Below, piece by piece: positions 19,051-62,700 of a DNA stretch of 64,000 nt. The stretch is from NCBI GenBank assembly GCA_963575745.1, contig CAUYUJ010000126.1, forward strand, positions 558,001 to 622,000, given 5' to 3'. The position numbers and the translations under genes are program-made. The DNA comes from Prorocentrum cordatum. Its lineage: Eukaryota. Below the pieces are notes generated by a model, which worked only from the letters and a program-made list of their open reading frames with translations, made no database searches and was not told the origin of the DNA. Positions within the stretch are counted from its first letter, which is position 1. The number at the start of each line of letters is the position of its first letter.

Positions 19051-19102
<52 letters not shown>
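18950..19102. repeat. (CT)n microsatellite
   Basis: Directly visible. Confidence 0.95.
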
Positions 19103-19105
<3 letters not shown>

Positions 19106-19174
19106 GAAAATAATACAGAGGAATCGGTAGCAATCAATAGGAATCCAGCACGGAGAACACCACACGCGGCAATG

Positions 19175-19534: not shown

Positions 19535-19588
<54 letters not shown>

Positions 19589-19720
19589 AATCGCGACGAC
19601 GACGACGACGACGACGACGACAAGGGCGAGGAGACGAGGGCGACGACGATCACGACGTCGAAGACGACGACAATCACGACAATCGCGACGATCACGACGA
19701 CAAGGGCGAGGAGGGGAGGG
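19175..19720 (+). repeat. Two ~75-bp direct repeats, each followed by a (GAC)n tract
   Basis: ACAAGCTCA.CACA..ATGGCGAGCTCT..CTGCG.ACGG..TATGAA at ~19180 and ~19470, each running into GACGAC... Confidence 0.75.
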
Positions 19721-24139: not shown

Positions 24140-24640
24140 TAATTACCAAGATGGCCCCAAGAGGGCCCAAGGTAGCCCAAGATGGCCTCCACAATGGCTC
24201 AAGATAGCCGAAGATGATTCAAGGTAGCTTCCAACATACTTCCAAGAGGCCCGACGAGGGCCACAAGACGGTTCCAAGTGCTCTCGGACCATCCTCAGGA
24301 CCGCCCCAAGAGGCCATCAACGATTTGTAGCATCTCGCCGTTTCGCTTCCGATGCGCCTTATCTCGAGGCCTCAAGATGGCCCCAAGATGGCCCCAAGAG
24401 CGCCCGAAAGCATCCCAAGAGCGCCCCAAGAGAGCCCCATGAGGCAAGTTTGATGGCCCCAGGGAGGAGGCTAATCGAGGAGCCCCCCATTTTGATCGAT
24501 GTCCACCAAGATGGCCCGAAGAGGCCCTCCAGAGCTCCCAAGGGACCCCCAAGAGGGCACCAAGAGAGACCCAAGATCCCAGAGAGCCCCAAGAGGACCC
24601 CATGATCCCCCAAAAGAGTCCCAAGAAAGCTCCAAGTGGC
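24140..24640 (+). repeat. CCAAGA(T/G)GGCC-type degenerate repeat block
   Basis: Same repeat vocabulary as 3470-4520, 41930-42400, 48680-49690 and 52550-53100; reverse-oriented blocks at 42730-42860 and 46900-47850. Confidence 0.8.
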
Positions 24641-25874
24641 GATTTTGAGGGCTCTGCCTGTCTTCGTAGTCCTCCTCGTCCTCGTCCTTGCCCTCGTTGT
24701 CTTCCTTTTCCTGTTCCTCCCCTTCCTCGTCGTGGTCGTGGTAGTGGCCGTGGTCGTGGTCGTGGTCGTGGCCTTCGTCGTCATCGTCGTCGTCAAGGTC
24801 GTCGTCGTCGTCGCCGCCGTCGCCGCCGCCGCTGCCGTCGCCGTCGTCGTCCGTCGTCGTCATCGTCGTCGTCGTCGTCGTCTTCCACCTCCTCCTCCTC
24901 CTCCTCCTCCTCCTCCTCCTCCTCCTCCTCCTCCTCCTCCTCCTCCTCCTGCTTCCCTCGCCCCCACGCGGGCCCCAGGCCATCGCTTGCTCCCAGAGAT
25001 CTCTCTGTTCACCCTGGTTGCCCGCTTTGTTTCACGACGTCTGTCTCTTAGTCCCTTCTCCTGGCAGCTCGCACGGGCAGGGATTCTACATGGGCTGGTG
25101 GGGATACTTTTTTGATCGCGAGCGACGCAGGCAGCTGCGCGCCGTCTAAGCAGCTGGTGGGAATGCTTTTTTCGGTCGCGGCCGCGAGACCAAGGTCAGG
25201 CGGCGAGAAGGCTGGTGGGAATGCGCGAAGCGTCAAGAAATTCTTTCTGGGGGCCCAGATTCAAGGATGCTTCAGCATGTCAATTCTTTCAATCGGCGCA
25301 CATGCACCACCTGATGCCCACATAGAAAACCAGTCTGGATTTTTCAAAACTTCGATCCGCGCCCTCAGAAACAAAACCCTTTCAATATCTCGCCCCTCAG
25401 TATGTCAACCCCTGTCCAGCCAGGCCCATGTGCGAACCCGCTGTGGAAAACAAACGGAGGAGGAGGCAGCGGGTACTCCTCCTGCGCGGGCGTCTTCTGA
25501 AGATTCCGAGCAGAGCCCTCCCTAACAAAAATCTTCTGCTCTTCATCTGCCTCCTCCTCCTCCCCCCTCCTCCTCCTCCTCCTCCTCCTCCTCCTCATCC
25601 TCCTCCTCCCCCTCCCCCTCCCCCTTCTGCCCCCCTCTCCCCCCCCCTCTTCCTTCTGCTGCTCCTCCCCCGGAGGCCCCTCCGCCTCGCCCCCCTCCTC
25701 CAGAAGTCTCCTCTCGGGCGCGGCCTGACCCAGAGCTCCTCGAGCCCTGGAGGGCCCCGGCCCGTCGTGCTCCTCCCGCCCTCGCCCCTCCGAGCACCGC
25801 CAAGAAGACGAGCACTCGCTCCCCCGCGCGCGCCTGCGAGGAGAGGTCGGCCGCGCGCAGACAGAGGGGGGGCA

Positions 25875-29221: not shown

Positions 29222-29657
29222 CCCATCCTCCACACAAGTCCCTGCAAGTACGCCTTTTCACTGCTGGAAGCGCCCCTGACGAGCGCCCCATAGGCCTGCC
29301 ATTCAGGCGAAAGCTCCGTCCTGCAAGGAGGTCGACCTGCACCCTTAAAGGCAGGGTCTGGGAGAGCTCCACACAACACACCGCCAGCCCTGGCCGACCC
29401 GTGGGCCCTGGACTGGTGCGCAGGCCTTCCTGGCCGAACCCCAGTAGGCCGGGAGGTCTGTACACCGATCCAGGGCCCTGGGGCCCAGGAGGTGCCTGGC
29501 CAGGGTCAGTGGCGGTGGTGTAGTTGGCGCCCCTCCGAGGGCAACACAAACTCAAGGCAGCGTCTCGCGATAGCCCTGCTCTGAGAAGCGGAGCCGCCCC
29601 CCGCCCGCGCAGCTGCAGCACGAGGCTTCACGTTCAGGACATAAAACATGTGAGCGT

Positions 29658-30193
29658 CCTCCCTCCTCCTCCTCCTCCTCCTCCTCCACCTCCTCCTTCT
29701 CCTCCTCCTCCTCCTCCTCCTCCTCCTCCTCCTCCTCCTCCTCCTCCTCCTCCTCCTCCTGCTCTTCCTCCCAAAAATCCTCCTCGTCCGCCTCCTCCCT
29801 CCTCCTCCTCCTCCTCCTCCTCCTCCTCCTCCGCCGCCTCCTCCTATCCTCCCGTCCTCCTCCTCCTCTCCTCCTCCTCCTCCTCCTCCTCCTCCTCCGC
29901 CGCCGCCGCCGCCGCCGCCGCGCCGCCGCCGCCGCCGCCTCCGCCTCCGCCTCCGCCTCCGCCTGCGCCTCCGCCTTCGCCTCCTCCTCCTCCTCCTCCT
30001 CCTCTCCTCCTCCCTCCCCCTCCTCCTCCTCCTCCACTTTCGCCTCCGCCTTCGCCTCCACATGCGCCTCCGCCTCCGCCTCCGCCTCCGCCTCCGCCTC
30101 CGCCTCCTCCTCCTCCTCCTCCTCCTCCTCCTCCTCCTCCTCTCCCCTCCTCCTCCTCTTCCTCCTCCTCCTCCTCCTCCGCCTCCTCCTCCT
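29658..30193. repeat. (CCT)n/(CCG)n/(CCTCCG)n microsatellite
   Basis: Directly visible. Confidence 0.95.
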
Positions 30194-33004: not shown

Positions 33005-33098
33005 AACGACAGCGACGCCAACGACGACAGCGACAACGACGCCGACGACGACGCCGCCGACAACGACTACGACGGCACCGACGACGTCTCCAACGACT

Positions 33099-33133
<35 letters not shown>

Positions 33134-33356
33134 AACACCGACGAAAAAGACGACAACGACGCCGACGCTGACGACGACAACGACGATGACAACGTCGACG
33201 ACGACGCCGCCGACGACAACGCCGACGCCGACGACGACGACGACGACGGCGACGACGAAGACGACGACGACGACGTCGCCAACGAAGACGACGACGACGA
33301 CGAGGGAGGAGGGAGGACGACGACGGCGACGACGACAACGACGAGGGAGGAGGGAA

Positions 33357-33388
<32 letters not shown>

Positions 33389-33570
33389 CGACGAAATAGG
33401 AGGGACAACGACGAAACGCCGACGAAGACGACGAGAGAGGAAGGACGACCACGGCGACAACGACGACGGTAACGACGACGACGCCAAGACGACGACGACG
33501 ACGAGGACGACGACGGCGACGACGAAGACTACGACGAGGGAGGAGGGAAGACGGCGACGACGACGACGAC
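33005..33570. repeat. (GAC)n-type imperfect microsatellite
   Basis: Directly visible. Confidence 0.95.
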
Positions 33571-33574
33571 GCAA

Positions 33575-34100: not shown

Positions 34101-35884
34101 TGGCGGGGGGAATGATACCGGTTTGGCTGGGATAATACGAGGTCATATTTAGGATGGACATGTGTGTGGATTTGAACATGCATGACATCACAATACCCCA
34201 AGGGGGATAGTTAACTCCAGGGGGTAGGGTCTATTATTCCTTGTAGAAAGGATAATATATGTGGTGACAGCTATGTGGTGCCGTCTATGTTGAGCAAAGT
34301 ACGCGGTGCAAGCTACATGGTGCAAGAAGATGTGGTGCCAACCATGTGGGGCAATCTGTGTGGCGCAGTTTATGTGGTCCAATGACTGTGGTGTAATATC
34401 GGTGGTGCAGCAGATGTAGCGCAAGCTACGTGGTGCAGCTCATAATGCCTAACCTGAAACGGTCAACCCCACTGCCCACACAATCATCTCACCCATCCAC
34501 CAGCAATTTAGTTTGCAAGACCCAGGCGGCGGCGATTGCGATGAGTATTGGGTGTGGGTTGGTGCATCTCGGCGGCCGCGCTAGCCCGCGCATGCTCGCG
34601 CGCGCAGCGGCCAGCTAGTTTGGCGCGACCGACGCGGCCGCTGGCGCTGACCGCTGGGCATTTCCCATCGGGGAGTTCAGTGCGAGGCGGCGACTTGGGC
34701 GGGCGCGATATCATGGCAACGTCGACAACGGTAGACACGAGGATGATCGCAGCGATGCTGGTGACGATGGTGACAACGACGACGGCAAGGCCAGTGACGG
34801 CGCCGATGCGAATCACGCCGACTACGATGCCAGCGTCCTCCCGTCGGTGATGAAGATTTTGGAAGGAGTTCGACATGCGCGCGGCCGACGCGCGACAGTG
34901 GCACGCACTGTATTATTTGACACGGATCGTGCCCCCCAGCACGCGCGCAAGGGCGTTCGGATGATTTCTAAATGCGGCGCGGGAGGCCCGTTTTGCCGAA
35001 TCCCACCAGCCTTGTAGGGCGTATGTGGTCGAGGGTGGTTTGTCTTCCACCTGCCACTTTTCCCGTTCGGTGAGCGGTGCATCACTGTGCCTTATTAATA
35101 CACCACCCCTCTCCCATCCGGCCGGCGTCTAACCAGGAACCATGCCGACTCCATGAGGACCCGGCCCCCACCATCCCCATCAAAAATTGTACAAAACTGC
35201 ACTCTGCCTCCATCTGTGGAGCATGCGCGGCCAACCTGATGCGGCCCCCCCCACCATCTCTGTCTAAAAACAATGCAAAATACACACTGTGGGGCAAAGT
35301 CTTGAGTCATGTTCGTGAAGCCCGCAAACATTTTGTTTTGCGTTCGACATGGACGGCGAGGGTGCCAGCATATTCCCTGCCGTGCCCAGGGAGACCATCC
35401 CTGACAAAAACAATACAAGATGCACCTCGCGGCTAAATCTGGATCGTGCGCGGCCATCCCGCGATCACTGTCGAATGGTTGTTGACAGGGACGGCGGGGA
35501 TGGTGGCGCGCGGCCTGCTGTGCGCAAGCCCACCAGACACAATAATGGGCATTGATCTTCGACAAGGAAAGCAGGGGCCGACATGTTTCCCGATGTGTGC
35601 TGTCACATGCGCAGGTGCACCTGACGCACTCTGCGCATGCCCCGAACATGGCGCACCTGGCGCGGCTGGAGTGTGCGGCACACCTGGCGCACTCGGAGCA
35701 CGTGGCGCACCAGGCGTGCCTGGCACGCTCGGGCCCCAGGGGCGCCTGGTGCGCGTGGCGCCCCTGGCACGCGTGGCGCACCTCGCCCAAGAGTCGCGCA
35801 CCTGGGGTCGGCTTTAGTTCCCAGTAGCTGCCCATCCAAAGACGACCGCTGAACACGCTCAGGCTCGGGCGTTACTTCTATGTT

Positions 35885-37400: not shown

Positions 37401-37740
37401 AGTCCCATGGATTCCCATCATCAACGTGCCCGAAATGGTGTGTTCTAAGGATTCCGGATCATGCTGTTGCAACAGTTATGTTGATCCGCTGTGTTGAAGT
37501 CCCAAGAATGGCGTTCTGGTACAGTTCTGGATGGTCAAGATGCAGCAGTCAGGTTGATCAGTGAAGCTGGAATCCCGAGAACACTGTTTTGGCATGCTCC
37601 AGGGTCTTCAAACGGTTGTCTTTCAAAGAGTCAGTTCCTTCAATGGAAATGAAACGTTGTAGGGGCCTATGAAGAGGGAGCTTGGAGGGAGGGTCTATTC
37701 CAACATCGTTGATGCCTCTTGGGTTTACACTGGTGGTCCT
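36130..37740. repeat. ~410-bp direct duplication (36130-36540 and 37328-37737), each copy followed by (CCT)n
   Basis: Near-identical copies ending TTGGGTTTACACTGGTGGT immediately before the CCT tracts. Confidence 0.9.
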
Positions 37741-38657
37741 CCTTCCTCCTCCTCCTCCTCCTCCTCCTCCTCCTCCTCCTCCTCCTCCTCCTCCTCCTCC
37801 TCCTCCTCCCCACCTCCTCTCCTCTCCTCTCCTCTCCTCTCCTCTCCTCCTCTCCTCCTCCTCCTCCTCCTCCTCCTCCTCCTCCTCCTCCTCCTCCCTC
37901 CTCCTCCACCCCCCATCCCCCTCCCCCTCCCCCTCCCTCCCCTTCCTCCTCCTCCTCCTCCTCCTCCTCCTCCTCCTCCTCCTCCTCCTCCTCCTCCTCC
38001 TCCTCCTCCTCCTCATGCTCCTCCTCCTCCTCCTCCTCCTCCTCCTCCTCCTCCTCCTCCTCCTCCTCCTCCTCCTCCCCTCCTCCTCCCCTCCCCCTCC
38101 CCCATCCTCCTCCTCCTCCTCCTCCTCCTCCTCTCCTCCTCCTCCTCCAAATCCAATCCTCCTCCTCCTCCTCCTCCTCCTCCTCCTCCTCCTCCTGCTC
38201 CTCCTCCTCCCCTCCTCCTCCTCCTCCAAATCGCCTCCTCCTCCTCCTCCTCCTCCTCCTCCTCCTCCTCCTCTCCTCCTCCTCCTCCTCTCCTCCTCCT
38301 GCCCCCTCATCCTCCTCCTCCTCCTCCTCCTCCTCCTCCTCCTCCTCCTCCTCCTCCTCCTCCTCCTCCTCCTCCTCCTCCTCCTCCTCCTCCTCCTCCT
38401 CCTCCTCCTCCTCCTCCTCCTCCTCCTCCTCCTCCTCCTCCTCCTCCTCCTCCTCCTCCTCCTCCTCCTCCTCCTCCTCCTCCTCCTCCTCCTCCTCCTC
38501 CTCCTCCTCCTCCTCCTCCTCCTCCTCCTCCTCCTCCTCCTCCTCCTCCTCCTCCCTCCTCCTCCCCTCCTCCTCCTCCTCCTCCTCCTCCCTCCCCTGC
38601 CCTCCTCCTCCTCCTCCTCCTCCTCCTCCTCCTCCTCCTCCTCCTCCTCCTCCTCCC
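37738..38657. repeat. ~920-bp (CCT)n tract, the longest in the window
   Basis: Directly visible; ~240 bp of it (~38310-38553) is perfect. Confidence 0.97.
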
Positions 38658-38901
38658 CATGGGCCGTTCCCCCCCAGTCGGCCCTCTTGTCGCCCCTGAC
38701 CTCCCAAAAGATCCGACGGCACGAATAAAAATCTACGTCACGAAAAATCACGAACGGAATCGCACCGTTCTGCGGCATGTCTCGAGCTGGATCGGTCCGT
38801 GAAGGCATTACGAGATCGCTCGGTGCGAACAAAAATGTGACGCTAGGATCTCAGCGTGCTTTCCCGTCACGCCGCCCCTGGAGTGAGGGAAAAGAGAGAG
38901 C

Positions 38902-39663: not shown

Positions 39664-42600
39664 CTGAGTGTTGCTCCGCTCAGCGGGGCGTGGGGCCTGG
39701 AGAAGCTCGGAGAAGCTCCGGACATGGACGCCTGGGGACCGGGAAGTGGTCAGCGCATCAGCCAGAAGCAGCGGAGCCAGAAGCCGCGGAGCGGCACACG
39801 AAGCCAGACGCTCCTGACCGGAGCCTCGAACACGAAACGTCCCCCGTCTTCGCGAGCGAGCACACACACACACACACACACACACATCCGTATCCGCGGC
39901 ATCGCGGGCCGGGCCCCTTGGCCGCAACCCCGCGGGTGCGGGGCGTCTTCTCTCGCGGATGCCCTGCGCGGAACGCACGCGTGCGGCCGCGCATCCGCGG
40001 GATCGCACCACGGAATCCAGACCGCGAGGGCGCGGAGATGGATCCGTCCGCCGCCCGTGACCTCTTGGCGAGGAGGAGGAGGAAGAGGCGGAGGAGGAGC
40101 TAGGAGGAGGAGGAGGAGGAGGAGGAGGAGGAGGAGGAGGAGGAGGAGGAGGAGGAGGCGGCGTCCGCCTCTGCGCCGGGGTCCCTCGGGAGCCCGCCCG
40201 CCCTGGCGCCGCCCGGCGGGGCGCCTGCGCGGGGGCGCTGCGGCGCTGCGGCGCCGCGCCGCGAGGAGCAGGGCCGAGGGCTCGGAGGCGCGAGGCCTCC
40301 CGGAGGGGGCCCGCCCAGCATGGGGCCGGAGGATCGCGCCGCCTGCATCGCCGATGCGTGGGGGATGCCTCGGCGACGCCAGCGATGCCTCGTCGCCGCC
40401 GGCGTGGAGGAGTTGGGGCTCCGCACCGGGCCGATGCATCGGCGAAGCGGCGCGATCCTCCGACCCCAGCTGCTCGGGCCCCCTCTGGAAGGCCAGGAGA
40501 GGATCGAGGGGTCGAGGGCTCGCGGGGCCGAGGGGCCGAGGATCGAGGGCTCGAGGGCTCGAGGGCTCGAGGGCAGAGGGCTCGAGGCTCTCGAAGTTTG
40601 GAGGCGGCTGGAGGGGTCGACGGATCGAGGGATCGGCGGATCGAGGCTCGAAGCTTCGGGGAGCTCTGCGGGCTGCTTTTCGACCCCCTGGCGGCCGCCA
40701 GAGAGGCACGGGTCCCCGAGTGCGAGAGGACCCGGCTCACTCTCCACGAACGCAGGGCCACGGGCGGTGCGACTGCGAGTGGTTGCGAGCTTCGCTGGAC
40801 TGTCTGGCGAAGGAGAAGCAGTTGGCGCGTGAGGACAACACGCGCGGGGACCCTCCGCCCCCTCCTCCCCCGTCCGCCGCCCTCCTCTACAGGCATGCTC
40901 TGACCGACTGCAGGCGCCAGTACACCAGATGCCGCGGCCAGGCGGCCCTGGCCACCATGAAAGAGTGGCACGGCACCGATTGCCCAACGCTCTTGAATGT
41001 CGATGGTGTTATGATGTTCCCCTCCCGATGCATCGGTGCTGCGTCGGCGTGGAGAAGATCGGGGCTCCACATCGAGCCGCATCGCCGATGCGTCGGCGAT
41101 GCGGCTCGACTCACCGACCCCATGTTTTGGGAATCCCAAACTGGTGCGGTGACAGACCTTGCGGTGACATTGAACTCCCTGAGGATCTCACCGCACTGTC
41201 CGTCACCGTGCGGAGGCCCCAGTTATCCGAGACGTCCTCGGAGAACGACACGAGTCTCAAAACTGTGCGGCCATCCCGAATCCACTGGCTCACCACACGG
41301 TGTGGTCATCACACCGCTTGGTGGGCCCAGACCGACATCAGCTTCGACAAGGACGAAGCCTGGACTTGGACAATATCGGATCAGGGCGAATCCGAATCTC
41401 TGAGATCTGGCGGCTCCTGAGGATGTATCTCACACACCGCGGCCGTTCCAGAGCGCTATGGAACGCTCTGAGAGCGTTCCCGAACTCCCTGGAACGATCT
41501 GTCAACATCACATGTTGTTCAAAATCGACAGCGGCCGCTGTTGGGCAGGCTACTTCTTGTCTCAAATGGACAACGTCCGCGGCGACACTGGCAGCGAAAC
41601 CTGTTCAAGATGAGCAGGAACTGCTGTCGGTCTTCGTGCCCATTCTTTCCGCACCACTTTTGATCCTACCGATCCTGGGCCCGCCTGGTCGACCCCACGC
41701 GAGCGGCCCAGAAGGCCGCCGATCCGGCGTGTGAGTTTCTCAAAGGGCCTGAGCTACAGCCTGCAGACCGAACTGCTTCAGCTCTGCTAGGGGGGGGGGG
41801 CCGGGGGGGCTCTGCCTGGGGAAGGGGTGTTTGTGTGTGTGTGGGGGGGGGGGGGGGGGCGGTGTGTTCCTGCGCTCCGCTTTCTGGGCGGGGCTGGGAC
41901 AGGTAACAATCGGCCACATTCTCACCCTGGGAGGCCAGACGGCCAAGACGGCTCAAAATGACCCCAATATGGCCCAGGATGTTCTCCAAAAAATGCCCGA
42001 TGAGGCCCAAATCATTGATTTTACATGCTTTTGAAGGATTTGGACGCTTCGTTCTTTTCAGCCTTCCAACGGCCCCAGAGGCCCCCGAGATCGCCCCAGA
42101 GGCTTCTAAGATGGCCCTCTGACAGCCCCAGGGGTTCCTCAGACGGCCCCAAAAGGGCCCCAAGACGGCCTAGAGGCCCCCAAGACGGCCAAGATAGCCT
42201 CCAAGACGGCCCTGAGGCGCCGCCAGAATGCTCCCAGACGGCACAGCGAGGCGCCCAAGACGGCTTCAGACGGGCCAGGAACGCCCTAAGACCGCAAACA
42301 AAGGGTTCCAAGAAGCCCCAAGAGGCTCAAAGACCCCCTCCAGAGACCCCTTCCTACGACGGCCCCAACAGAGCCTCAAGACGGCCCCGTAGGCCTCCAA
42401 GCAAGCCCGAGCACCGTCGGGAGCGCCACGGACTGGCGGCACTGGCCAGAGGCCACTACAATACCACGTGGAGGGGGGCACGCCTTCTGGCCTCCTCTTC
42501 GCTCGCCTCGGCGCCGCGAGGGCGGCCTTCTTGCGCGCCTTTGCCTGCCGCGGCCAGGGCACCGCGGCGCGAAGAGGTCCAGCGCGGCGGGGGGGGGTGG

Positions 42601-43767
42601 GGGAAGAGGTGGCGAGGGTGGCGGGGGGGGGGGGGGCGAGGCGAGGGCGAAGGGAGGAGGAGGCGAAGCCAGACAGGCCCGCACCGTGGCGAAAGTCAGG
42701 GCGGGAGGCGTTTCATAGTTTTCGGCAGCTCGATCTTGGAGGCCATCTAGGGCGTCCTGGAGGCCTCTTGGGCCGTCTTGGGGCACTCTTGGCGCCGTCT
42801 TGGGGGCCTCTTCGGCCGTCCTGGGGCCATAGTGGAGGCCTCTTGGGGCCCTCCCCCCCAAGCCCCGGGACCGTCGAATAACGACTCGGATTGGCAGCAA
42901 ATTGGCCCCGAGGAAAGAGGGACGGGACTTCCAGGGACCGTGCTCTGAGAAAGTCAAACATTCAGGACGTCGCATTTCTGTCAAGGGTGATGATGCGACG
43001 CGCGGCTTCGCAATGAGCGTGCTCGATAACGGTTCGGATAATCAAAGATAAATGGAGGCGGCGGCAGCGGCAAACGCTCCCGCCTGGCCGAGGAGGCGGC
43101 GGCAGCGGCAAACGCTCCCGCCTGGCCGAGGAGGGGGCGGGCGAGACGGCCGTCCTTCGGTAAGGGATAGTTTGAGCACTGCTCCTTAGAAATGTGCAAG
43201 GGTCTACATATCCGACACCGTGCCCGTTGGCACGGAGTGGGCGTGTCCTCAGATCCTTTGCCTAATGCCCGGCGCCTCAGTCCTCAGGTCCTGAGGAGTC
43301 GAACGATCCCAGACCCAAAGTTGCCAGATTTGGTGGGACTTGTCGCGAGCCCTCTGGCTTCCCCCGGGGCTTCCCGCATGACTTTTTCCTGGAAAGAGCG
43401 TGGTCCCAGGGTTCTCTTTTAGTTTTGTTCCCGGAAAGGGCGCGGGCCCAGGGTTCTCTGTTAAGAAGTTTTCCCCCCGGCCCCTACGGGAGGTGGGCCG
43501 GCGGAAGCGTGAATTTTCAGTTGAACAAGTGCGTTTCTCGCGTGCCCGCTCGAGGAAAATGTGCCCCCCCCTCTCGGAGGGTGCGGGGGCATTGTTAGCA
43601 GAATCCTCGAACAAAAACCAAGGTCTGGAGCCCCGACCGCGACGCGGAAAAGCATCCCGCGCGCAGGAATTCCGAGGATGTCTCGCGCGTGCCGCGTCCC
43701 GCGCGCAGGAAGTTCGAGGATGTCTCGACTATTTCGCTTGTTTGTCCAGGATTTCCTTGGCCGCACA

Positions 43768-46858: not shown

Positions 46859-48529
46859 CGTACAGCTGGCTTGCCCGTTCTTTCTCTCTGTCTCCCCGTC
46901 TGGAGGCTCTCTTGGGGCATCTTGGTGGCATATTGGGTGCCCTCTAGGGCTATCTCGAAGCTGCACGAGGCCTCTTGAGGAGGGGCCAGGGCGTGTTGGT
47001 ATCTTGGGAAGGCACTAGAGCGCGATAAAACACGAATGATGAGTAGGATCATACTTTTGATGATGATGACGACGACATACTGTCTCGTGGGAGCATCTTG
47101 GGCGTCTCCCAGGCCCTCCTTGGGCCGTCTTGTGGCTCTCTTAGGCCCTCTTGGGGCCCTTTTAGGCCGTCCTCTAGCTCTCTTGGGAGCCTCTGGGGCC
47201 GTCATGGCACAATCTCGGGTTGCTCTGGAGCTGTATCGGGCCGTTCTTGCCCGAAAAGGCGAGGAGCTGGACAACCTTCATACACCTGAAGGCAACATGG
47301 TTTCAGCACGTCTGGGGGTCCTCTCGGGTGCCGCTTGGGGTGTCTTGGAGGCCTCTTGGGCTGTGCTGAGGCCATCTTGGATGGGCTATCTTGGATCGCT
47401 CTGGGGCCGTCTTTGGTCCCGTCCGGGCCTCTCTCACGCCGTCTTGGAGGTGCCTTCAGCTGGCGAGGAGCTTATGCAGGTAGGGCGGGGCCCAGGGCGC
47501 CCCCCGGGCGGCGAAAGCCCTACTTTCGTTTTTTGTTGTTCCCGCTTAGACTGCCAATCGGTGCTCAAGGGGGGGTCTTCGAGACCTCTTGAGCCGCATT
47601 AAGGCCGTCGTGGGCTATCTGGATCGCTCTTGGGCCGTCCTCGTGCCCGTCTGGGCCTCTCTACGCCGTCGTGGAGGCCGTTGAAACCGTCTGCATACGT
47701 GCAGATGTTCGAACACGTCTTGGGGCCGTCTTTGGGGGTAGCTTGGGCCACCCTGGGGCGATCTTACGGGCCTCTGGCCTCTTGGGTCGTCTTGGAGGCG
47801 TCTTGGACCGTCTTGGAGGACGCTTGGCCTCTCATGGACTGTCTTGAAGGTACCTCAAATTGACGAGGACTTTACGCGCTTACGCGAAGCCTACGCGGAG
47901 CTTACGCGGAGCTTACGTTGCCGCCCGTTTCGGGCCCTGGTGTCAAGAACTGGTTACGTCACCGCTCTCTGTTGGGAGCCTTGGTCTTATCAGCTTGTTT
48001 ACGTCACTGCTCGCTCTTGGGACCCGCGGTGTTCAGGGTGCGTGAACGGTCCGTTAACAAGGAACTCTTTTACCTGTCAACGGTCCGCTAACAGGGAACA
48101 ACGCGTCCGTCACCGGAGTTGTTTCCCTGTTAAGTCCCTGTTCAGGGCTCCGTCAACAAGGAAAAATATGTCTGAGCGTGTAACCCTGTTTTTTCGGTGT
48201 TAAGCACCCGATGTTCCATGTTAAGGGCTCCGTTAACAAGGAAAAGGGGTGGATGTTCTCTGTGAAGCGCCCGATGTTCCCTGTCAAGGGCTCCGTTAAC
48301 AAGGGAAAAAATTGCCCGAACGAAAAATATCCCTGTTAACGGTCCGTTACCAGGGAAACGGGCGGGCCAATTTTTCACCCGAATTTCCATGTTAAGGGCT
48401 CCGCTAACAGGGAAAAAGGCGGGCCATTAGACCCCATTTTCCCTGCGCAGTGCAGAGGCCACCCCCTCACACTCCCCCTAATTAATTCCTTCTGACTAAC
48501 GGATCGCACGTTACGCGCGCTTTCCGTCA

Positions 48530-49833
48530 TCCGCCGCCCCCTGTTGATTCATCACAGGGGTGCCTGGCGTGCTGAACCCTTTCGGTTTTGGTTTTGGTTC
48601 TTTTCCAAAAGAACTCCCCCTGGGGCTCCGGCGCGTCCCGCTGGGGTCCCGGGACGATCTTCAAGGAGCGCAATTCCCAAATGTTTCGCTCAAGATGGCC
48701 CAAGATGGCCTCCAAGATGGCCACGTTGGCCCAAGATGGCCTCCAAGATGGCCTCCAAGTCCGCCCAAGATGGTCCAAGACGACCTCCATGACGGCCCAA
48801 GAGAGTACAAGATACCTCCAAGTTCGCCCAGGGCCCGAAGAGGCCAAACTCATTGATTTCCTCAGGGTTTTGACAGATTTTGGCATTTGCTTCTTTTCGG
48901 CCTTCCGACGGCTCAAGACGGCCCAAGAGGCCCCCAAGATCGCCCCAAGATCGCCCACGAGGCCTCCAAGATGGCCCCATGACGGCCCAAGAGGCCCCCA
49001 AGACGGCCCCAAGAGGGCCCCAAGACGGGCCAAGAGGCCTCCAAGACGCCCAGGATGGCTTCCAAGACGGCCCCGAAGCGCCCCAAGAAGGCCCCAAGCC
49101 GGTTCAGAGAGGCCCCCAAGACCGCTCCCGACGGCGTCAGACGGGCCAGGAACCCACCAAGAAGGCCGAAGTTGGCTCGAAGCTGGCCCAAGATGGCCCA
49201 AGAGGCCTCCAAGAGGGCCTCCAGGAAGGCCGGAACAGGCAACCAAAAAAAACATATGTTCAATAGGTTTTTGGAAGATTTTGACATTTGCTTCTTTTTG
49301 GCCTTCCGACGGCCCGAGACGGCCCAAGAGCCCCCAAAGATCGCCCAAAGGTCGCCCAAGAGGCCTCCAAGGTGGCCCTAGAACGGCCCAAGAGGCCCCC
49401 AAGATGGCCTCCAAGACGGCCCTGGAGCATTCCAAGAGGGCCCCAGGTCGGCCCAGAGAGGCCCCTAAAACAGCTTCCGACGGCGTCAGACGGGCCAGGA
49501 GCCCACCAAGACGGCCGAAGATGGCCCTAAGATGACCCAAGACGGCCCAAGAGGCCTCCAAGAGGGCCTCCAGAAGGCCCGAAAAAGCCAAAATCAGTGA
49601 TTAGACGGCCCAAGAGCCCTCCAAGACGTCCTCCAAGAAGGCCTGAAAGGGTCAAAATGGCCTCCAGACGGCCAAGATGACCTTCAAGATGCCCACGTGC
49701 TCCCCGAAGGCTTTCCAAACCGATTCGGGGAACACATGGTCCGATAGCTTGGCAGGTCTGGCCTCCACGTTCGGCCACATAGGCGCTTCCAGAGAGGCAG
49801 GGGGCGGCGGTGATTCGCCGTGGGCGTCTTCGA
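48530..49833 (+). mobile_element. Non-autonomous Helitron2/Helentron-like element filled with CCAAGA repeats
   Basis: A|TCCGCCGCCCCCTG + 5' hairpin (CCCCTG..CAGGGG) + GGCGTG ... CAGGGGGCGGCGG TGATT CGCC-GTG-GGCG TCTTCGA|T. Confidence 0.75.
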
Positions 49834-51080
49834 TAGACAAGCGCGTCCCACTACTCGCAAGTGCCCACTCGCAAGTGGCCTGGATCCACCCCGGGGGATT
49901 GACTATCCCTGACATGGAGGCAAACCTGTTGTTTTTTCCTCTGACGCTTGCGAATCGGCAACTTGCGAAGAATGGAACGCGCTCGGTGAAGAGAGGTCGC
50001 CCTGGCACGTTCTGCCTGCCGCCAGGACACCACGGCCGCACCACGGCGGGGGGCGCTCGGCCTTCTTGCCGCCCTCGGTGGCCGCGGCGGCCGGCGCAGC
50101 GGCCTCTGCGCATCGGCGGCAAGGGGGGGAGGAGAGCTGGCAGGCGCCCCCAGAGTCGAATCGACGAGTCGGATCGGCGATCGAAGCCAATCGGAACGGC
50201 GGAGATCGGCGGCCGAGTCGGGAAAAGTCGATTCGGCGGAAGTCGGCGGTCCAGCAGGCCTCCATCAAGAAATCGGAGCCAAATCGGAACCCCAAGTCGA
50301 ATCGATTCGGAATCGGAAACCACCAAAAACGAATCGAGCACAAGTCGGAAGAATCGAAATGAGCCCTGAGCTGGCAGGAGGGCCAGCTCTGCTGGGCCAA
50401 TTTTCCACCACCATTGCTAGGTGAGGGAGGATAGGGGAGGTCCTCCTCCCCCTGTCCAGCCCAGAGCAGCGCGCGCCTTCCGCGTTTGATGATCTGGCTA
50501 CGTCAGCCAACAGGTGTTCCCCTGACGCTCAAGCGCCCTTTGGAATTGCCGAGTCTATCAAGGAGCTGGAGTCTGAGGCGAGCATCAGGAAGAGACTGAC
50601 CGCCATCATTTCCTGTATGCCTCCCTCGGTTGGACACGAGGAGAGGGCTTCAGCCCAGGGGACAGCCAGGCCGAAGCTCGACTTACCAGCGGCCCTCAGG
50701 GACACTGCGCACCTGCTGAGCGTCAAAGAGTTGTCGGGTCGTCGACATCGTCGTTGGCACTGTCGTACGCGCGGGTCGGAACCAGCCAGCAGGTGCTCCG
50801 CGAGCTCTGCGTTGCGAGCAGGGAAAAGTCGACTCAGAATCGGCGATACATCGCCGACTGATCGGCGGCGGCCCCCCCATGGCGAGGAGGAGGAGGAGGA
50901 GGAGGAGGAGACGGAGGAGGGGTAGGCTCAGTAATTGAATAGCTGCGCGAGCTCTGCGCTGCGCCCGGGCACTGTCGGCCCTGCTGCCCGCGCCCCTTTG
51001 GGGGGGCGGGGCCTCGCAGGCGGGGCGTCGCAGGCGCACGCCTCTCACGCTACGCTGTGGTGGGAGGCGGGGGGCGGGAG

Positions 51081-51248
51081 CTCACGATAAGGGCTTACAT
51101 GCGAACCCCACCCCTACCCCCCGCGATTTCTGAGGGGGAGGGTGGGGTTGACTTCGTTCGGGAGCTCCCGAGCGAAGTGATCCCCACCCTCCCCCTCAGA
51201 AATCGTGGGGGGTAGGGGTGGGGTTCGCATGTGGCCCCCTATCGTGAG
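51081..51248. repeat. 168-bp near-perfect palindrome (foldback MITE)
   Basis: Centre GGGAGCTCCC at ~51160; arms ACATGCGAACCCCACCCCTACCCCC / GGGGGTAGGGGTGGGGTTCGCATGT. Confidence 0.9.
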
Positions 51249-52370
51249 GCGCTGAGGTTCGCCTGCTCGAGGGGTGCGGGGGTCTGGGCACTGACCACGT
51301 CCGCACGACAGGCAAGCTGGTCAAGGATTGCGAGCACACCACACGTACGTGGCTCCAGTGTCTGGAGGCTCTGGAGAGGGGGCGTGCCCCAGGCCACACT
51401 GAACTGGCCAAGGAGGTAAACGTTCTCAGGTGATCGTGGTGGGAGTGCGAAGCGCAGAGGCTAATCTAAACCCAATTGTCCTCCGCATTCCCTTCCTCTT
51501 ACTGTTCCTCCTCCTCCTCCTCCTCATCCTCCTCCTCCTCCTCCCAAGGACACCTTTTAGTAAGGGCTCCTTAATAATGAATCCCTTAATAGAAAACCTG
51601 CAAAAAGATCAGTTTTGTATGCATCCCTTCAATAGCTTGCTCTGCCGGCCTCTCAGATCCCCTTCATGCTACCCCCCTCCTTGCAAAGACGGGGGGGGGG
51701 CTTCGGAAGTTACATACCCCTCCCTTTGGGAACGTCGAAAAGAAAATGGGGGATTTTCGGACGCCCCTCCCCTCCTCCATTTCCGACGCCGGGGTAAGCC
51801 TAGGCTGCCCTGTGCAAAGGGGGGTACTTCGGAAGCCACCCCGCTCCCCCTGCTGTAAAGGGGGGGCTTCAGATGTTAGACCCCCCCTTCTGAAGGCTTC
51901 CAGGGTGAGCCTGGGCCGCCCTTTCAAAGGGGTAGGAGATTTGGAAGCTACTCCCCTCCCCAATCCCTTCTCGCCTACACGCAAGATTGACCCTGGATAA
52001 GAGTCACCTTTGGTGCGCAGCTGAACACGAGGCGCGGGGTGGCAAAAACTTGGCGCGCAAGCCGCTGCTACCGCTTCACACTCAGCCATCTGGGAACCCG
52101 TCTGAGCCCGCACCAAAGGTCACTCCGGCGAAAGGTTACTCTTTCGTCTAGTCGACCTTTGCGAAGCCAGGGGGTGCTGGTCACGGAGGGGAGGGGCTTC
52201 CGAAACTATCCCCCTCTCCCCCCATTTTCAAGGCTGGTGGTAAGCCTGGGCCGACCTTGCAGGGGGGGCTTCGGAAGCTACCCCCCTTCCTTGTTGTGGA
52301 TCTGCGCGAAGTATCGTCGTCGTCGTCGTCGTTCTCGTCATCGTCGTCGTCGTCGTAGTCGTCGTCGTAG

Positions 52371-53317
52371 TCCGCCGACCCCTTGTGGGTCTCCAGGCGT
52401 GTGAGATTGTTTTCCCTCCCATAATCCCCCCCCAGGGACTCCAAACTGGGATTTTGACTCCCACCCTAGGCCCGGGACGGCCCCCCCGGACCGAACTCAC
52501 CCGGGGCGGTCTGGGCTCCCTGGGCTCGCTCTTGAGCTGTTCGACAGCACTTGACGCCTCCCAAGAAGCCGCCAAGACGGTCCACGAGAACCCAAAGTCG
52601 CCGAAAGATCGTTCCAAGACGCCCAGGATGAGCTCAAAACGGCCCAAGAGGCCGCCCAGACACCCCACGAAGCCTCCAAGAGGCCTCCCAAGAAGTCCCC
52701 GAGAATCCCAAATCTTGAAATTTCTTTTGGAAAACGTGCATGTTCAGCATATCCAACTTGTTAGCCTTCACGGCGTTGAAAGCCGTCCACGAGGCCCCAA
52801 CGAGGCCCCCAGGACCACCCCAAGACGGCCCACGAGGCTCCCAGGAGGCCCCAAAGACAACCCAAAACAACTCCAACGTGGCCCAAGAGGCGCCCTAGAC
52901 GGGCCAAAAAAACTCCAAAACGGCCCCAAGAACGGCCCAACAGAGGGACCACGAATCGCGAATTCCAGCGCTCCGCCCAACGAAGCTCTCCGGAGGACCC
53001 AAGAGGCCCCCAAGCGGCCCTAAGAGGCCCCCGTGAGGCACCCAAGAGGCCCCAAGGAGCCCCCAAGAGGCCCAAAAGAAGCCTTAGAACGGCCCCCAAG
53101 ACCCCCTCGGCGTGCAGCGGGAAGCCGTCTCCGAGCCGACCGGGGGCCGCCAGGGAACGGATCGGGACGAAGCGTGGGTCCCAGAAAATACGATAACAGC
53201 AACGAGGCAACAGAAACGATGTCGAGCGCCGTGTCAAGATTCGGACAAGCCTCGTGGAATGCAGTCCTGGCGGCGCAGTAGTCAATAGAGGGGTCGGCGG
53301 ATATGGCGTAAGCCTTA
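52371..53317 (+). mobile_element. Non-autonomous Helitron2/Helentron-like element
   Basis: TCCGCCGACCCCT + hairpin GACCC-CTTGT-GGGTC + GGCGTG ... AGGGGTCGGCGGA (perfect 13-bp IR) TAT GGC-GTAA-GCC TTA|T. Confidence 0.75.
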
Positions 53318-53508
53318 TCCTCGCGTCGTGATGACGCGCGCTCATTCAGCAAGCATGGCGCATGTTGGTGAGTTTCCGATTGGTGCAGTCTCCCCCGCCT
53401 CACAAAAGACGTTCCCGCACGCCCTCGCGTCACAGTCGTGCTGCGCTCCGTCTGCTCTTCTCTCCTCTCGTGGACTGCAGGCGCATGTTGTTTGGCTCGC
53501 CGCTCTGC

Positions 53509-54490
53509 GCGCTGCCACGTGACGAGTAGATCAGTGCGTTTCCGCTCCCTGCGTTGCCACGTTGCGAGTAGTAGAATGGCGTGTATCGCTCACCGCCCAG
53601 GCGTTGCCACTTGATGGGTAAGCAAAACGACATGCGGCTTCGCCGTCTGCCTTGCCACCTGACGAAGGTAAGCTTGCACGTGTTCCGTATCACTGCGTCG
53701 ACACGTAGCGATTACAATATAAGCCTGTTCCAAACGATTCACGGAGGGTTATTCGAATGTCTCATGTAATGATCTCAAAGATTCTGGATCATTCTGGCAG
53801 GCCACCTGACTCCTGCGTGGGCGTGGCCATGTGATGGGTAGAGCGACATGGAATGTGCAACGTGATTATGACCACCTGCGCTGCCACCTGACAAGAAAAG
53901 TATAAACTAATATGACTTCCGACCAGTGTTGCCACGCGGGGAAAATTCGCCGGCCCAACGGGCCAGAGGCGTGCTAAGATCTCCGGTAACTGGTTAACAA
54001 TATTTCTAGTTCGCGCGCGCGGGGCGGCCCCTGAGGGTCCCCGGGCGACAAATACCCCGGGCAAGTCCCGGGAGGTCCCCGGGAGGATCCCGGCAAGGTC
54101 GGGCCAGAGATGCCAGACAGGGCAATATTTGGACACCCCTCACGAGGATCGTGGCCTCCGAGGGGGGGGCCGCAATCGACTACCCCCCCTCCCGCCCCAA
54201 GAGGTCCCCAAGAGGCCCCCAAGATGCCCTGGGGGCCCCCAAGACGCCGCCAAGGAGCCCCAAGAGACTCCCAAGAGGTCCCCAAGAGGCCCTAAAGAGG
54301 GCTCCAGGGCCGGCGGAATGAGCGAAGCGATTAAATCATGGTATACCCTTCGACTCGGTCTATGAGGCGCAGACATGTGACGAGTACAAGAGAATAGTGT
54401 GCGTTCTGGCTTCAGGCGTTGCCACGCGGCTCGAACACCAGGAAAGTGTTGCGTCGCGTTTCCGCCGCGGCATTGCCGAGCGGCGAGTAG
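53509..54490. repeat. Degenerate ~48-bp-period array with conserved core GCGTTGCCACGTGACGAGTA
   Basis: Cores at 53509, 53551, 53601, 53649, 53695, 53821, 53878, 53926, 54367, 54416 and 54470; interrupted by the 53946-54335 element. Confidence 0.7.
53946..54335 (+). mobile_element. Short non-autonomous Helitron2/Helentron-like element
   Basis: A|TTCGCCGGCCC + hairpin GGCCC-AAC-GGGCC + GGCGTG ... GGGCCGGCGG AATGA GCGAAGC GATTAAA|T; its removal restores the period of the host array. Confidence 0.75.
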
Positions 54491-55716
54491 AATAGACTTT
54501 GTGCTGCTTCGGGCGGGAGGATTCTAGGGGAGTGCGGGGAGCCTGCGTGGAGCGGCAACGGGGGAGGGGGGCGTCCGAACCCTTACTTTCGTAAGCGATC
54601 GTTCGTGAGGTCCCTGTCGGGAGAAATCCTGCGTGAGGATTCGTCGGGACTCTTGGTAAGGATCCCTCTGTCAAGGAGTCAGTATTCGGGATGCCTCAGT
54701 AAGCAGTCCTTAGGAAGGATCCCTTTAGTGAGGAGTCCTCTTTGAGCTTGCCTTGAGTAAGAAATACTTGCCAAGGATACCTTTAGTACGGCTCCTTCGT
54801 AAGGATGTCGTCCGTAAGGGATCCGTAAGAAAGGGTTCTTAAGTAAGGAGTCCCGAGTAATGCTCTTTTATTAAGGACCTCTTCAGTAAAGAGGTCTTGG
54901 CAAGTATACCTGTGGCCTGGGGCCCTTAGCAAAGGGTCCTGGTGTACGGAGTCCTGAGTACGGATTCCTTGTTTGTTGGATAGGAGCCCTAAGAACGGAT
55001 GCCTCTGGTACGGAGTCCTTAAAAAGAACTACTTACTTTAATAAGGAACCTTTAGTAAGGATGATGTAGCAATGAGTCCGCCAGTAAGGATACCTGTAGA
55101 ACAGATTCCTCAAACAAATGTTTCAGTATGGAGTCCCTTGCGCAGGATCGGCCTGACCAGGATCAGCTGGGTGGTCAATGTTGACTCGGGGCGTCTACGA
55201 AGCGGGCAGTCGCACATCATGGGCCGAGGCATGTGCGAGGACGAGGGGGGGGGGCCCAGGGCACGTATGGACAAAGGAGGAGCGGGTCATGACACCCGGG
55301 GAGATCTCGTCGCCCTGACCATATCCACCCCCCCGAGTCATCACCCCCTCTCTTGCCCCGGCGCACGCTGACGTGGATTTTGAGGAGCTGTGGATCCGGC
55401 GCGCGGGCGCCAGATCCACGGACCGAAACGCGAGGCTGGTGCCACCTGGTTTGACGACGGAGCGCGGCGTCTCTGCACGGAAACGAGACCCGTCGCGAGT
55501 CCACGCGCCTGTCAGTCAGTGTGTGCGCTTCCTCGACGTCTGGCAGCCCCAGGAGGGCATGTCTTATCCGCGGCTATCACGGGCGTTCTGGGGGGGGAGA
55601 CGGGGGTGGGCGGGGAGGGGGGGCATGACGTAGCGCCCCCGCCCCCCATCGTGACAGACTGCGGTACTGGACGCGCTGCGGCAGTGCTGGGGACGCACTT
55701 TGGCGGCGCGCAAAAG

Positions 55717-60686: not shown

Positions 60687-60743
60687 CTGGGTGCACTCTC
60701 CAATCCAAGTGCCCCGTCGCATTCGAAAGTGGGAGCAGAGCAA

Positions 60744-61277
60744 GGAGGCGGAGGAGGAGGAGGAGGAGGAGGAGGAGGAGGAGGAGGAGGCGGAGGAGGA
60801 GGAGGAGGAGGAGGAGGAGGAGGAGGAGGAGGAGAGGGAGGAGGAGGAGAGGGGAGGAGGAGGAGAGGGGGAGGAGGGGAGGAGGAGGAGGAGGAGGAGG
60901 AGGGGGAGGGGTAGGAGAGGAGAGGAAGAGCAAGGGAGGAGGAGGCGGAGGAGGAGGATCGAGGAGGCGGAGGAGGAGGAGGGAGGAGGAGGAGGAGGAG
61001 GAGGAGGAGGAGGAGGAGAGCGGAGGAGGAGGAGAGGAGGAGGAGGAGGAGGAGAGGAGGAGGAGGGAGGGGAGGGGGAGGGGGAGAGGAGGAGGAGGAG
61101 GAGGAGGAGGAGGAGGAGGAGGAGGAGGAGGAGAGGAGAAGGAGGAGGAGGCGGAGGAGGAGGATCGAGGAGGAGGAGGAGGAGGAGGAGGAGGAGGAGG
61201 AGGAGGAGGAGGAGGAGGGGGAGGTGGACGAGGAGGAGAGGCAGAGCAAGGAGGAGGAGGAGGAGGAGGAGGAGGAG
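60744..61277. repeat. (GAG)n imperfect microsatellite
   Basis: Directly visible. Confidence 0.95.
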
Positions 61278-61425
61278 GCCTGTGGCACTGCATGCCCAGG
61301 GCCAGGGAGGGCGACGCCGCGGCCACGAGCAGCCCGGGCCCCCCCGCGCCGCCCCGCAGCAGCATCCAGCGCGCCTCTCGCGGCGCGAGGGGGGGGCCGG
61401 CCCTGAGGGCCACGGGCCACGGGCC

Positions 61426-61578: not shown

Positions 61579-62700
61579 CTGAGGGCCCTCGCCAGGCCCC
61601 AGGACCGTCAAACAACGACTCGGGATGAAGAGCCGATCCTGGGGAGTGGGTCGAGACTGCCGCGGACCGCGCATCGACAAAATCACGACATCGGATCGCT
61701 GGGAGTGCTGCCAAAAGTGCCCCCGGCCAAGGGCGCCCCCGGGATTTCAAGGGAGGCCTCCGCGGCCTCCAGAGCACCCCTCACGAGGCCCAGAAGGCCC
61801 CCCTGGGGCTCCCAAACTTGAACGGAAAGCCAGGGCAGCCTGGGCCAGGGGCACCTTCGGCAGCCCCTGAAGGTGGCCCCCCGGCGGGAGTGGCCTCTGG
61901 TGCGCGGCCTCTGGGTGGCCCGCGAGGGGGCCAGACCCAAGCGCGCAGGCAGGCGCTCGGGAGGCCTCCGTAAGCCCGCACCACCTTGGAGGTCGCTGCG
62001 GTCCCAGACGCATGCGGTGACCTCAACAAACATCCCCGCGGACTCGCCACAGGACGTCGTCACACCCCAAGACATGGGTCCTGGACCCCGGGGCCGTCCC
62101 CGGGGACAAGCTTCTCACCCCGAGCCGCTGTCAACGGCCCCAGGGTGGAGGCAGGGGGCCAGCCCAGCGACGAAGCAGCCAGCGTCGCCCACTGCTGAGT
62201 ACGGACGGGCTTGCACGACGGCGAACGCTCCGCACTGCTGGGCTGCTCCGTGGGCAGATCAGCGACGCCGAGGAGGCCCCAAGAGGCCCACAAAAGGTCC
62301 CCCCGAGGCTCCCAAGAGACCGTCAAGAGGCCCCGAGTGGACGCCAAGATAACCCCAAGAATCTCCAAGACAACCCAAAAAATCGCTCAAGAGCAGAAAT
62401 TATTCGGCAAACTGTCCACCACCACTACCATATGTAGGACGGGGGAGAAGAGAGGATAAGGAGGTCCTCCTCCTCCTCCTCCTCCCTCAACCTCAACCTC
62501 AACATGAACCTCAACCTCAACCTCAACCTCCTCCTCCTCCTCCTCCTCCTCCTCCTCCTCCTCCTCCTCCTCCTCCTCCTCTTCCTCCTCCTCCTCCTCC
62601 TCCTCCTCCTCCTCCTCCTCCTCCTCCTCCTCCCTTCTCCCTCCTCCCTCCTCCCTCCTCCCTCCTCCCTCCTCCCTCCTCCCTCCTCCCTCCTCCCTCC

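Follow-up and report, generated by a model that had tools for sequence, protein, structure and literature searches.

Probable non-autonomous Helitron-like elements with co-varying asymmetric ends in a satellite-rich stretch of a Prorocentrum cordatum contig

Seven elements with one end grammar and family-specific arms

The stretch of DNA analysed here, which we call the window, comprises 64,000 nucleotides of the Prorocentrum cordatum contig CAUYUJ010000126.1 (positions 558,001 to 622,000; assembly GCA_963575745.1), has a G+C content of about 60%, is dense in micro- and minisatellites and includes a single gap of 100 N. There is almost no recognisable coding sequence in it; it does hold seven complete elements, all on the plus strand, which together cover 7,455 bp or 11.6% of its length (Table 1). 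Four of these (E1 to E4) had been proposed in an earlier note made from the sequence alone, and a direct reading finds them with the coordinates and ends it gave, while three more complete elements (X1, A_W1 and C_W) are added here. Tandem arrays built on the motif CCAAGA occupy the interior of X1, A_W1, C_W, E2, E3 and E4, and an array of a 73-bp satellite that of E1. As argued below, the elements are probably non-autonomous and Helitron-like, of the HLE2 type (the Helitron2/Helentron lineage), and represent at least six families with one end grammar.

This grammar was defined on ten elements, seven from the window and three from metagenome loci. All ten start with a T and a G+C-rich arm of 9-15 nt, and finish with the reverse complement of their own arm, a small G+C hairpin and a further 5-9 nt ending in A. 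The two arms are placed asymmetrically: the 5' arm lies 0-2 nt from the 5' end (3 nt in the decayed A_W1), and the 3' arm lies 16-25 nt inside the 3' end in 10/10 elements, E3 (16 nt) and X1 (19 nt) falling a little short of the distance known from Helitron2. Within the window the 5' end reads TC in 6/7 elements and TT in E4; the 3' ends read AAGA, TCGA, CGGA, GAAA, CTTA or TAAA, and CTRR is found at none of the seven.

The arms differ in sequence from family to family (CCGCCGCCCCCTG, CCGCCGGCCCCCT, TCCGCCGACCCCT, CGCCGGCCC, TCCCACCAGCC and TCCGCCACCGTGCCT), that of family C (TCCCACCAGCC) being quite unlike the others, and yet they co-vary. Pairing of a 5' arm with the 3' arm of the same element scored 8.5-13.0, against a cross-family mean of 7.0 (n=76, maximum 11.5), and the best partner of each 5' arm was its own 3' arm. 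When the arms of six elements, one per family, were permuted, only the identity assignment (1/720) attained the observed sum. When 48-nt windows were drawn at random, 2,000 times for each family, 0-0.55% of them scored as high as the own pair, and a part of these were the true partner itself. The earlier note had claimed that each 5' inverted repeat co-varies with its own 3' repeat, and had named pairing no better than chance as a result that would speak against it; the uniqueness of the true pairing among the 720 permutations bears out the former and answers the latter.

Two 3' ends that the earlier note had listed as orphans turned out differently. The one at 4717 is not an orphan, because a degenerate 5' end at 3671-3684 aligns with that of a complete copy in the metagenome locus L012 (84% over 64 nt between 3674-3736 and L012 670-731); the element so delimited is A_W1. 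It is directly abutted by X1, whose final base is A and whose arms pair at 14/15 positions; the 5' end of X1 is assigned from this pairing only, and its 3' end has homologues at L012 591-666 and, within the window, at 42430-42461. The window segment, X2, is the second of the listed orphans: 42461 is a real 3' end, of family X and of the same type as those at 3636-3670 and in L012, and a search of the window found no 5' partner for it. Conversely, a family-C-like 5' end at 35001 and two 5'-end-like sites on the minus strand (43506 and 17699) have no matching 3' end that we could find. The minus strand also bears four CCAAGA blocks, so that the note's placing of everything on the plus strand is right for the complete elements and for X2 but not for all fragments. 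The strand bias of the elements could come from biased insertion, from selection in relation to genes arrayed in one direction, or from chance. At the end of C_W three successive modules resembling a 3' arm (GCTGGTGGG plus hairpin) occur at 25092, 25150 and 25210, as if 3' ends had been stacked.

Table 1. Positions of complete elements and of isolated element ends in the window
Feature	Positions	Strand	5' end	Body or adjacent block	3' end
X1 (family X), complete	1809-3670	+	arm 1809-1823	CCAAGA array	arm 3636-3651; hairpin 3653-3664
A_W1 (family A, as E2)	3671-4717	+	degenerate; arm 3674-3684	CCAAGA-type array 4120-4500	arm 4682-4694; hairpin 4700-4710
E1	18102-18780	+	arm 18102-18115 (TCCGCCGGCCCCCT)	5.5 copies of 73-bp satellite, 18314-18715	arm 18746-18758; small GAA-loop hairpin 18764-18772
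C_W (family C), complete	24015-25240	+	arm 24015-24025 (TCCCACCAGCC)	CCAAGA array	arm 25210-25220; hairpin 25223-25233
X2, 3' end of family X element	42430-42461	+		CCAAGA body upstream of the end, 42080-42354	arm-like 42430-42440; hairpin 42443-42455; terminal A 42461, then T
E2 (family A)	48530-49833	+	arm 48530-48543 (TCCGCCGCCCCCTG); hairpin closing with GGCGTG 48566-48571	CCAAGA arrays with ~65-bp spacers, 48632-49709	arm 49798-49810; hairpin 49816-49826; terminal A 49833
E3	52371-53317	+	arm 52371-52383 (TCCGCCGACCCCT); GGCGTG 52396-52401	CCAAGA body 52515-53162	arm 53289-53301; hairpin 53305-53314
E4	53946-54335	+	arm 53946-53956 (TTCGCCGGCCC); GGCGTG 53968-53973	CCAAGA body 54119-54300	arm 54307-54318; GAA-loop motif 54322-54328
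5'-end-like site	43495-43506	-	TTCCGCCGGCCC plus hairpin	near minus-strand CCAAGA block 42678-42887	
Degenerate family-C-like 5' end	17679-17699	-		adjoins minus-strand CCAAGA block 17361-17519	
Family-C-like 5' end	35001-35011	+			no recognisable partner

Copies, boundaries and insertion sites

Comparison of copies supports the proposed boundaries. The last 143 nt of E2 (49693-49835) are 77% identical to A_W1 4577-4719, and the homology stops at 49835/4719. Further copies come from metagenome contigs of the Joint Genome Institute (JGI), which were scanned with a 24-nt pattern of the family A 3' end and gave 13 loci of 1.2-2.8 kb; a scan of viral_contigs gave 0 matches. An element is present in six of the 13 loci (L001, L002, L007, L008, L011, which is the same site as L007, and L012), and the remaining seven (L003-L006, L009, L010 and L013) were rejected as chance matches to the pattern in high-GC DNA. 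The recovered loci are biased to family A because only its 3' pattern was used. The family A 3' end is followed by unrelated DNA in L001, L007, L008 and L012. A complete family A copy at L012 667-1613 starts at the same T, its homology to E2 beginning at 48529, and a complete family C copy in L001 (295-1299, oriented) matches the 3' end of C_W at 92.6%. Judged by these alignments, the 5' boundary of family A and the 3' boundaries of families A, C and X are fixed by copies. The copies are dispersed, have unrelated flanks and usually lack a target duplication.

Contigs of four public sequencing runs, placed on 48300-54600 at a likeness of at least 80% (33,747 records from run X1, 8,849 from run X3, 53,813 from run X5 and 3,787 from run X7), show how the contig depth changes at the element ends. 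The highest word share of any run with the window is 0.15; the summed contig depth is not a copy number, it was taken in bins of 210 nt, and the bin 52309-52519 is dominated by a TCG microsatellite. In run X1 the depth rises from 23 (48300-48510) to 7,451 (48511-721) at the 5' boundary of E2, reaches its maximum of 134,956 within the CCAAGA array, and falls from 15,840 in the bin holding the 3' end to 283 in the next. Over the body of E3 it is 1,767-16,285, followed by 350 in 53153-53363 and about 1 in 53364-53785, and over E4 it is 9,112-20,321 and then 0 past 54419. Two run X5 contigs start to match at 53943 and 53945, at the 5' end of E4. The elements are abundant in marine sequence data, and their flank preference, described next, is a little unusual.

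The elements sit in AT-rich DNA: the six bases on either side have an A+T fraction of 0.58 and 0.64, whereas the window as a whole has 0.387. In 5/6 host flanks the 5' T is preceded by A, and the terminal A is followed by T in 9/12 cases as computed (P=4e-5), or in 10/12 after a one-base correction of X2; exceptions are a G on the 5' side of E3, a C on the 3' side of L007 and a G on the 3' side of L002. No direct flanking repeat longer than 3 bp was found in 8/9 tested elements. The earlier note's description of A|T sites without target site duplication therefore stands for the flank preference and for these eight elements but not for E1, which has a duplication-like flank of 9-10 bp. A duplication typical of DDE transposases, which the note had named as a contrary result, is not consistently present in these sites, read in their filled state.

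Some elements are joined directly to one another. The 3' end joins the 5' end of another element to the base in 4/16 distinct cases: X to A in the window, X to A in L012, A to C in L001 and A to A in L008. Each joint holds a single T between …A and CC…, and since this T is shared, exactly one T belongs to the element. The boundaries are a single T…A without T runs, and the flanks can be read in one of three ways, as T…A inserted at A|T, as C…A at (A)T|T, or as C…AT at AT|N. In addition, 5 run X7 contigs continue past 49834 directly into CCGCCGCCCCCTG. The two units of L008 are identical at 186/207 positions with a 10-bp indel, and because they agree only to this extent L008 is a genomic head-to-tail array rather than a circle closed by the assembler.

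A Helitron-like reading and its alternatives

Helitron2 elements were defined by asymmetric terminal inverted repeats of 8-15 bp, the 5' one lying 0-2 bp from the end and folding into a 5' hairpin, and the 3' one lying about 20-30 bp inside its end and directly followed by a hairpin, together with a 5' T and the lack of a target duplication; compensatory changes of the arms among relatives were also described (Bao & Jurka 2013, PMC3627910). Their Chlamydomonas representatives (Helitron-1N1_CRe and CRe-1/2/3) share with the window elements the asymmetric arms, a 5' hairpin (clear in E2, E3 and E4), the subterminal 3' arm before a hairpin, the 5' T, the absence of a duplication, the compensatory changes and non-autonomous copies of 0.4-1.9 kb (PMC3627910). 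They insert after TTTT, whereas the window elements are flanked by A|T in AT-rich sites, have somewhat shorter 3' tails (16-25 nt against 20-30), have bodies dominated by CCAAGA and show no autonomous partner. DINE-1/HINE elements, which are non-autonomous Helentrons with 13-bp subterminal repeats, an inverted repeat nested at the 5' end, central tandem repeats and a 3' stem-loop (Thomas et al. 2014, PMC4067079), offer a second close parallel: likewise present in the window elements are subterminal inverted repeats of about 13 bp, an inverted repeat nested in the 5' arm, a 3' stem-loop, a very high copy number, and central microsatellite or tandem repeats, which fill up to half of the element. 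The published HINE ends differ in having T runs and a TT target, the 3' arm in mites lies 38-60 bp from the end instead of 16-25 nt, and the HINE partner carries an added AP-endonuclease domain (PMC4067079).

The Helitron2-type FoHeli elements of Fusarium use a TNAT|A site, have an ambiguous 5' T and are found with their ends joined and inserted almost side by side (Chellapan et al. 2016, PMC5148889). FoHeli1/2 resemble the window elements in having hairpins at both termini, as seen in E2 and E3, the ambiguity of the 5' T, the AT-containing site, joined ends and copies within 2 bp of one another, and differ from them in being autonomous, in ending in ATTTT and in a 3' arm 30-40 bp from the end (PMC5148889). 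With canonical Helitrons (HLE1) the window elements share the 5' TC (6/7), A|T-like flanks, a small hairpin near the 3' end and the lack of a duplication, but they have no CTRR end, and their inverted arms and 5' hairpin are absent from HLE1. A Helitron2-like RepHel element is known from the dinoflagellate Symbiodinium microadriaticum (Heringer & Kuhn 2021, PMC8788227); it is autonomous, and the likeness follows its authors' description rather than its end sequence. In HELIANO, class HLE2 has 12-16-nt inverted repeats, the right one followed by a stem-loop, and usually inserts at T|T (PMC11417382). Asymmetric arms, the position of the 5' arm, a subterminal 3' arm with its hairpin and the lack of a duplication are all found in the window elements. 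The Helitron2/Helentron reading of the earlier note is thus supported by the anatomy of the ends, the DINE-1/HINE layout, multiple copies with confirmed ends and exact joints; set beside the published class descriptions, the elements are probably new families of a known class, non-autonomous HLE2, which they extend rather than found a class.

Several observations count against this assignment, and we set them out together with the other explanations on which they bear. 1) The first concern the hairpins, which were assessed with DNA energy parameters and 500 mononucleotide shuffles per sequence. At the 5' end, the first 40 nt form a hairpin of two tiers: one joins CGCC in the arm to GGCG in the conserved GGCGTG, and in the other the remaining arm bases pair with those in between. 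Shuffles as stable as this hairpin are few for E2 (1/500), L008 (1/500), L012 (13/500), E3 (23/500) and E4 (29/500), which upholds the earlier note's claim of a 5' hairpin with GGCGTG in three of its four elements. The hairpin does not stand above shuffles in family C (52/500 and 104/500), X1 (65/500) and A_W1 (85/500), and that of E1 is no better than shuffles (437/500). The hairpins of the 3' tails have stems of 3-5 bp and loops of GTG, GCA, GTA, GAA or GTAA. They modestly beat shuffles (6-32/500) in E2, E3, C_W, L012, L008 and L001, but those of E1, X1 and A_W1 do not, and the E4 tail does not fold under the energy model; several hairpins have just 2-4 bp. Hence the short GC hairpin that the note placed in every 3' tail is found modestly above shuffles in E2 and E3 and not in E1 or E4. 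Several 3' tails contain GCGAAGC, an unusually stable DNA mini-hairpin that is underrated in energy tables; it occurs 14 and 11 times in the window, which is not a significant enrichment (shuffles averaged 7.5, with maxima of 15 and 14).

2) Chance inverted repeats are plentiful in this DNA, 365 perfect pairs of at least 11 nt with a spacing of 150-4000 bp being found in a scan of one strand. As a result an inverted repeat alone is weak evidence, and the weight of the evidence lies with the position of the arms at the ends, their covariation and the comparison of copies rather than with the repeat itself. Homology between copies running past the ends, a further contrary result named by the earlier note, is not seen in E2/A_W1 or the family A loci, where it stops at the end, but two nearby family-A-type 3' ends in L002 (378-548 and 670-827), with (CAGCT/CAGAT)n bodies, are alike for about 60 nt past the predicted end, which could reflect a local duplication of end and flank, or read-through. 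The roughly 40 nt upstream of E2 have a paralog at 38830-38868, and CGCCGCCCC follows there too; the likeness of 38830-38880 to 48490-48543 covers these ~40 nt and the first ~12 nt of the arm and stops after the arm. This may be a further head-to-tail joint with an unrecognised 3' end. No second copy of E1 with its 73-bp satellite was found in the window and locus comparisons, E1 lying outside the run-contig placement, and no second copy of E3 or E4 with flanks was recovered from the window or the metagenome loci, so that the ends of E3 and E4 are given by the end grammar and the coarse 210-nt depth bins. The high background of inverted repeats, the local duplication in L002 and the single-copy state of E1 in the data compared would suit immobile, satellite-rich DNA that was spread by segmental or tandem duplication and acquired its inverted repeats by chance, as G+C-rich repetitive DNA may. 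We consider this extremely unlikely in view of the unrelated flanks of family A at 6 sites with homology ending at the same bases, the covariation of arms over six families (1/720), the consistent A and T flanks and the sharp depth steps at element ends.

3) The flanks of E1, ATCCAACAA(T) and ATCCATCAA(T), form a direct repeat of 9-10 bp with 1 mismatch, a likeness that the null model gives in 0.8% of cases for a single element, nine having been tested, though the flank itself is locally repetitive; moreover, cut points and the lack of duplication derive from filled sites only. Such a flank, an inverted repeat of 9-15 nt in each element and the A-T found on both sides of most copies could be taken to indicate cut-and-paste miniature inverted-repeat transposable elements (MITEs) of a DDE family, with terminal inverted repeats and a 2-bp 'AT' duplication (AT[CCGCC…CG]AT). 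The right arm is, however, not terminal, the hairpin tail of 16-25 nt being part of the element in all compared copies; the 'AT' is imperfect at the three sites named above; exact joints between families that share a single T (4/16 ends) are not expected from DDE insertion; no consistent duplication is present; and no open reading frame of at least 100 aa in the window matches a DDE domain at the Pfam cut-off. A DDE origin is accordingly very improbable.

4) The remaining points concern the enzyme and its target. A Pfam scan of all 336 stop-to-stop open reading frames (ORFs) of at least 100 aa in the window gave no match at the curated cut-off (0/336), so that neither in these frames nor in the six short element loci was a Rep, helicase or any transposase domain detected, which agrees with the earlier note's statement that the autonomous partner lies outside the window. 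From the structure of the ends alone we infer a partner of the HUH Rep/helicase type. With the 5' T taken as part of the element, the flanks here are A|T, whereas published HLE2 insertions are mostly T|T (PMC11417382). A mobile single-strand-nicking system with Helitron2-like ends that uses another HUH protein or an unknown nuclease, its likeness to HLE2 being convergent, would account for the missing partner in the window ORFs and the viral_contigs scan, for A|T-type flanks and a 5' TC that recall HLE1 beside arms that recall HLE2, and for 3' tails of 16-25 nt, at or below the 20-30 nt described (PMC3627910). We regard this as quite unlikely: the structural features of Helitron2 are present, the 5' hairpin being clear in part of the elements, the flank preference of HLE2 varies (e.g. 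TNAT|A in FoHeli; PMC5148889), a Helitron2-like RepHel is known in a dinoflagellate (PMC8788227), and Helitron_like_N, PIF1 and DUF6570 are reported to be prominent among marine algal protein domains (bioRxiv 10.64898/2026.09.23.753693). The combination of HLE2-type arms with HLE1-type TC…/A|T cut sites, with no partner seen, could also point to a separate dinoflagellate rolling-circle lineage, using a non-standard Rep/helicase or forming a deep RepHel branch, which may have grown into a dominant repeat of an abundant marine protist and seeded the 10-11 bp CCAAGA arrays along its chromosomes; we hold this to be unlikely.

If the elements are non-autonomous HLE2, as we favour, a Rep/helicase acting in trans (a HUH nuclease with a Pif1-like helicase, in HLE2 often with DUF6570) and encoded elsewhere would nick one strand at the left A|T, and the nicked strand would be peeled off 5' to 3'. 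The 3' hairpin and the pairing of arm with arm would mark the stop, where a second nick would be made at A|T; the ends would then be joined into a circle (…A-T…), and the circle inserted, with no target duplication, at an A|T (or T|T) step in AT-rich sequence. Head-to-tail arrays and composites would arise where termination failed or where a new insertion hit the end of a resident element, and the internal CCAAGA repeats could be inflated by slippage or unequal exchange.

Internal repeats, genomic setting and implications

The CCAAGA arrays, made up mostly of degenerate repeats, have a base period of 10-11 bp, about one helical turn, with autocorrelation peaks at 11, 21 and 32; family A has them in larger units of about 400 bp, parted by a spacer of about 65 bp. 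The earlier note had proposed that the elements spread the satellites of the window; this is seen for the CCAAGA arrays, which travel with the elements, but not for the 73-bp satellite of E1, for which no second copy was found. No recognised element ends were found at the 63-bp, 82-bp, 431-bp and 12-bp satellites of the window, around the CCAAGA block 62245-62412 or for the minus-strand CCAAGA blocks 46904-47880. An array of units of about 55-70 bp with TTGCCAC…GAGTAG flanks E4 on both sides (53460-53940 and 54360-54500); as the array continues on either side, E4 seems to have inserted into it, and the units are too diverged for reconstruction of the empty site.

As for coding sequence, the window ORFs yielded sub-threshold Pfam matches of a low-complexity type in 8 of 336 and a codon-position G+C bias in just 1/336, and an Rfam search over the whole window found no family, which leaves a reading as tRNA- or snRNA-derived short interspersed elements unsupported. 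An open frame of 939 aa (13080-15896, minus strand) has no Pfam match, and its language-model features lie nearest to RNase_H / RVT_1 clusters (score 0.98); it is probably a diverged retroelement, to which the neighbouring frame of 562 aa (15752-17437, minus strand) may belong. A near-perfect palindrome of 168 bp (51081-51248; arms of 87 nt, 91% complementary) is multi-copy in the run contigs, with a depth of 8,272 in run X1, and may be a foldback-type repeat. Very long trinucleotide arrays of TCC, CGA and AGG, of up to 310 copies, lie at 37737-38656, 29657-30193, 33013-33571 and 60743-61278.

The gene that flanks the element in L007 (937-2022, minus strand) encodes a secreted-looking protein of 361 aa with a linker of PTPF repeats. 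A search gave 523 relatives at E of at most 1e-5; every one of the best named ones bears the title 'unnamed protein product [Prorocentrum cordatum]', and these share 54-78% identity over 41-63% of the query; hence the host of this contig is a dinoflagellate related to Prorocentrum. A protein atlas search with this ORF gave no usable match.

Dinoflagellate genomes are huge and consist mostly of unclassified repeats. The end grammar described here, a T with its arm and 5' hairpin at one end and the arm, a mini-hairpin and a terminal A at the other, is searchable and would let a large share of these repeats be annotated as Helitron-like. It also shows a route by which one type of satellite, the CCAAGA arrays, moves round the genome, and offers a way to the autonomous Rep/helicase copies and to the question whether such elements have shaped the genomes at all.

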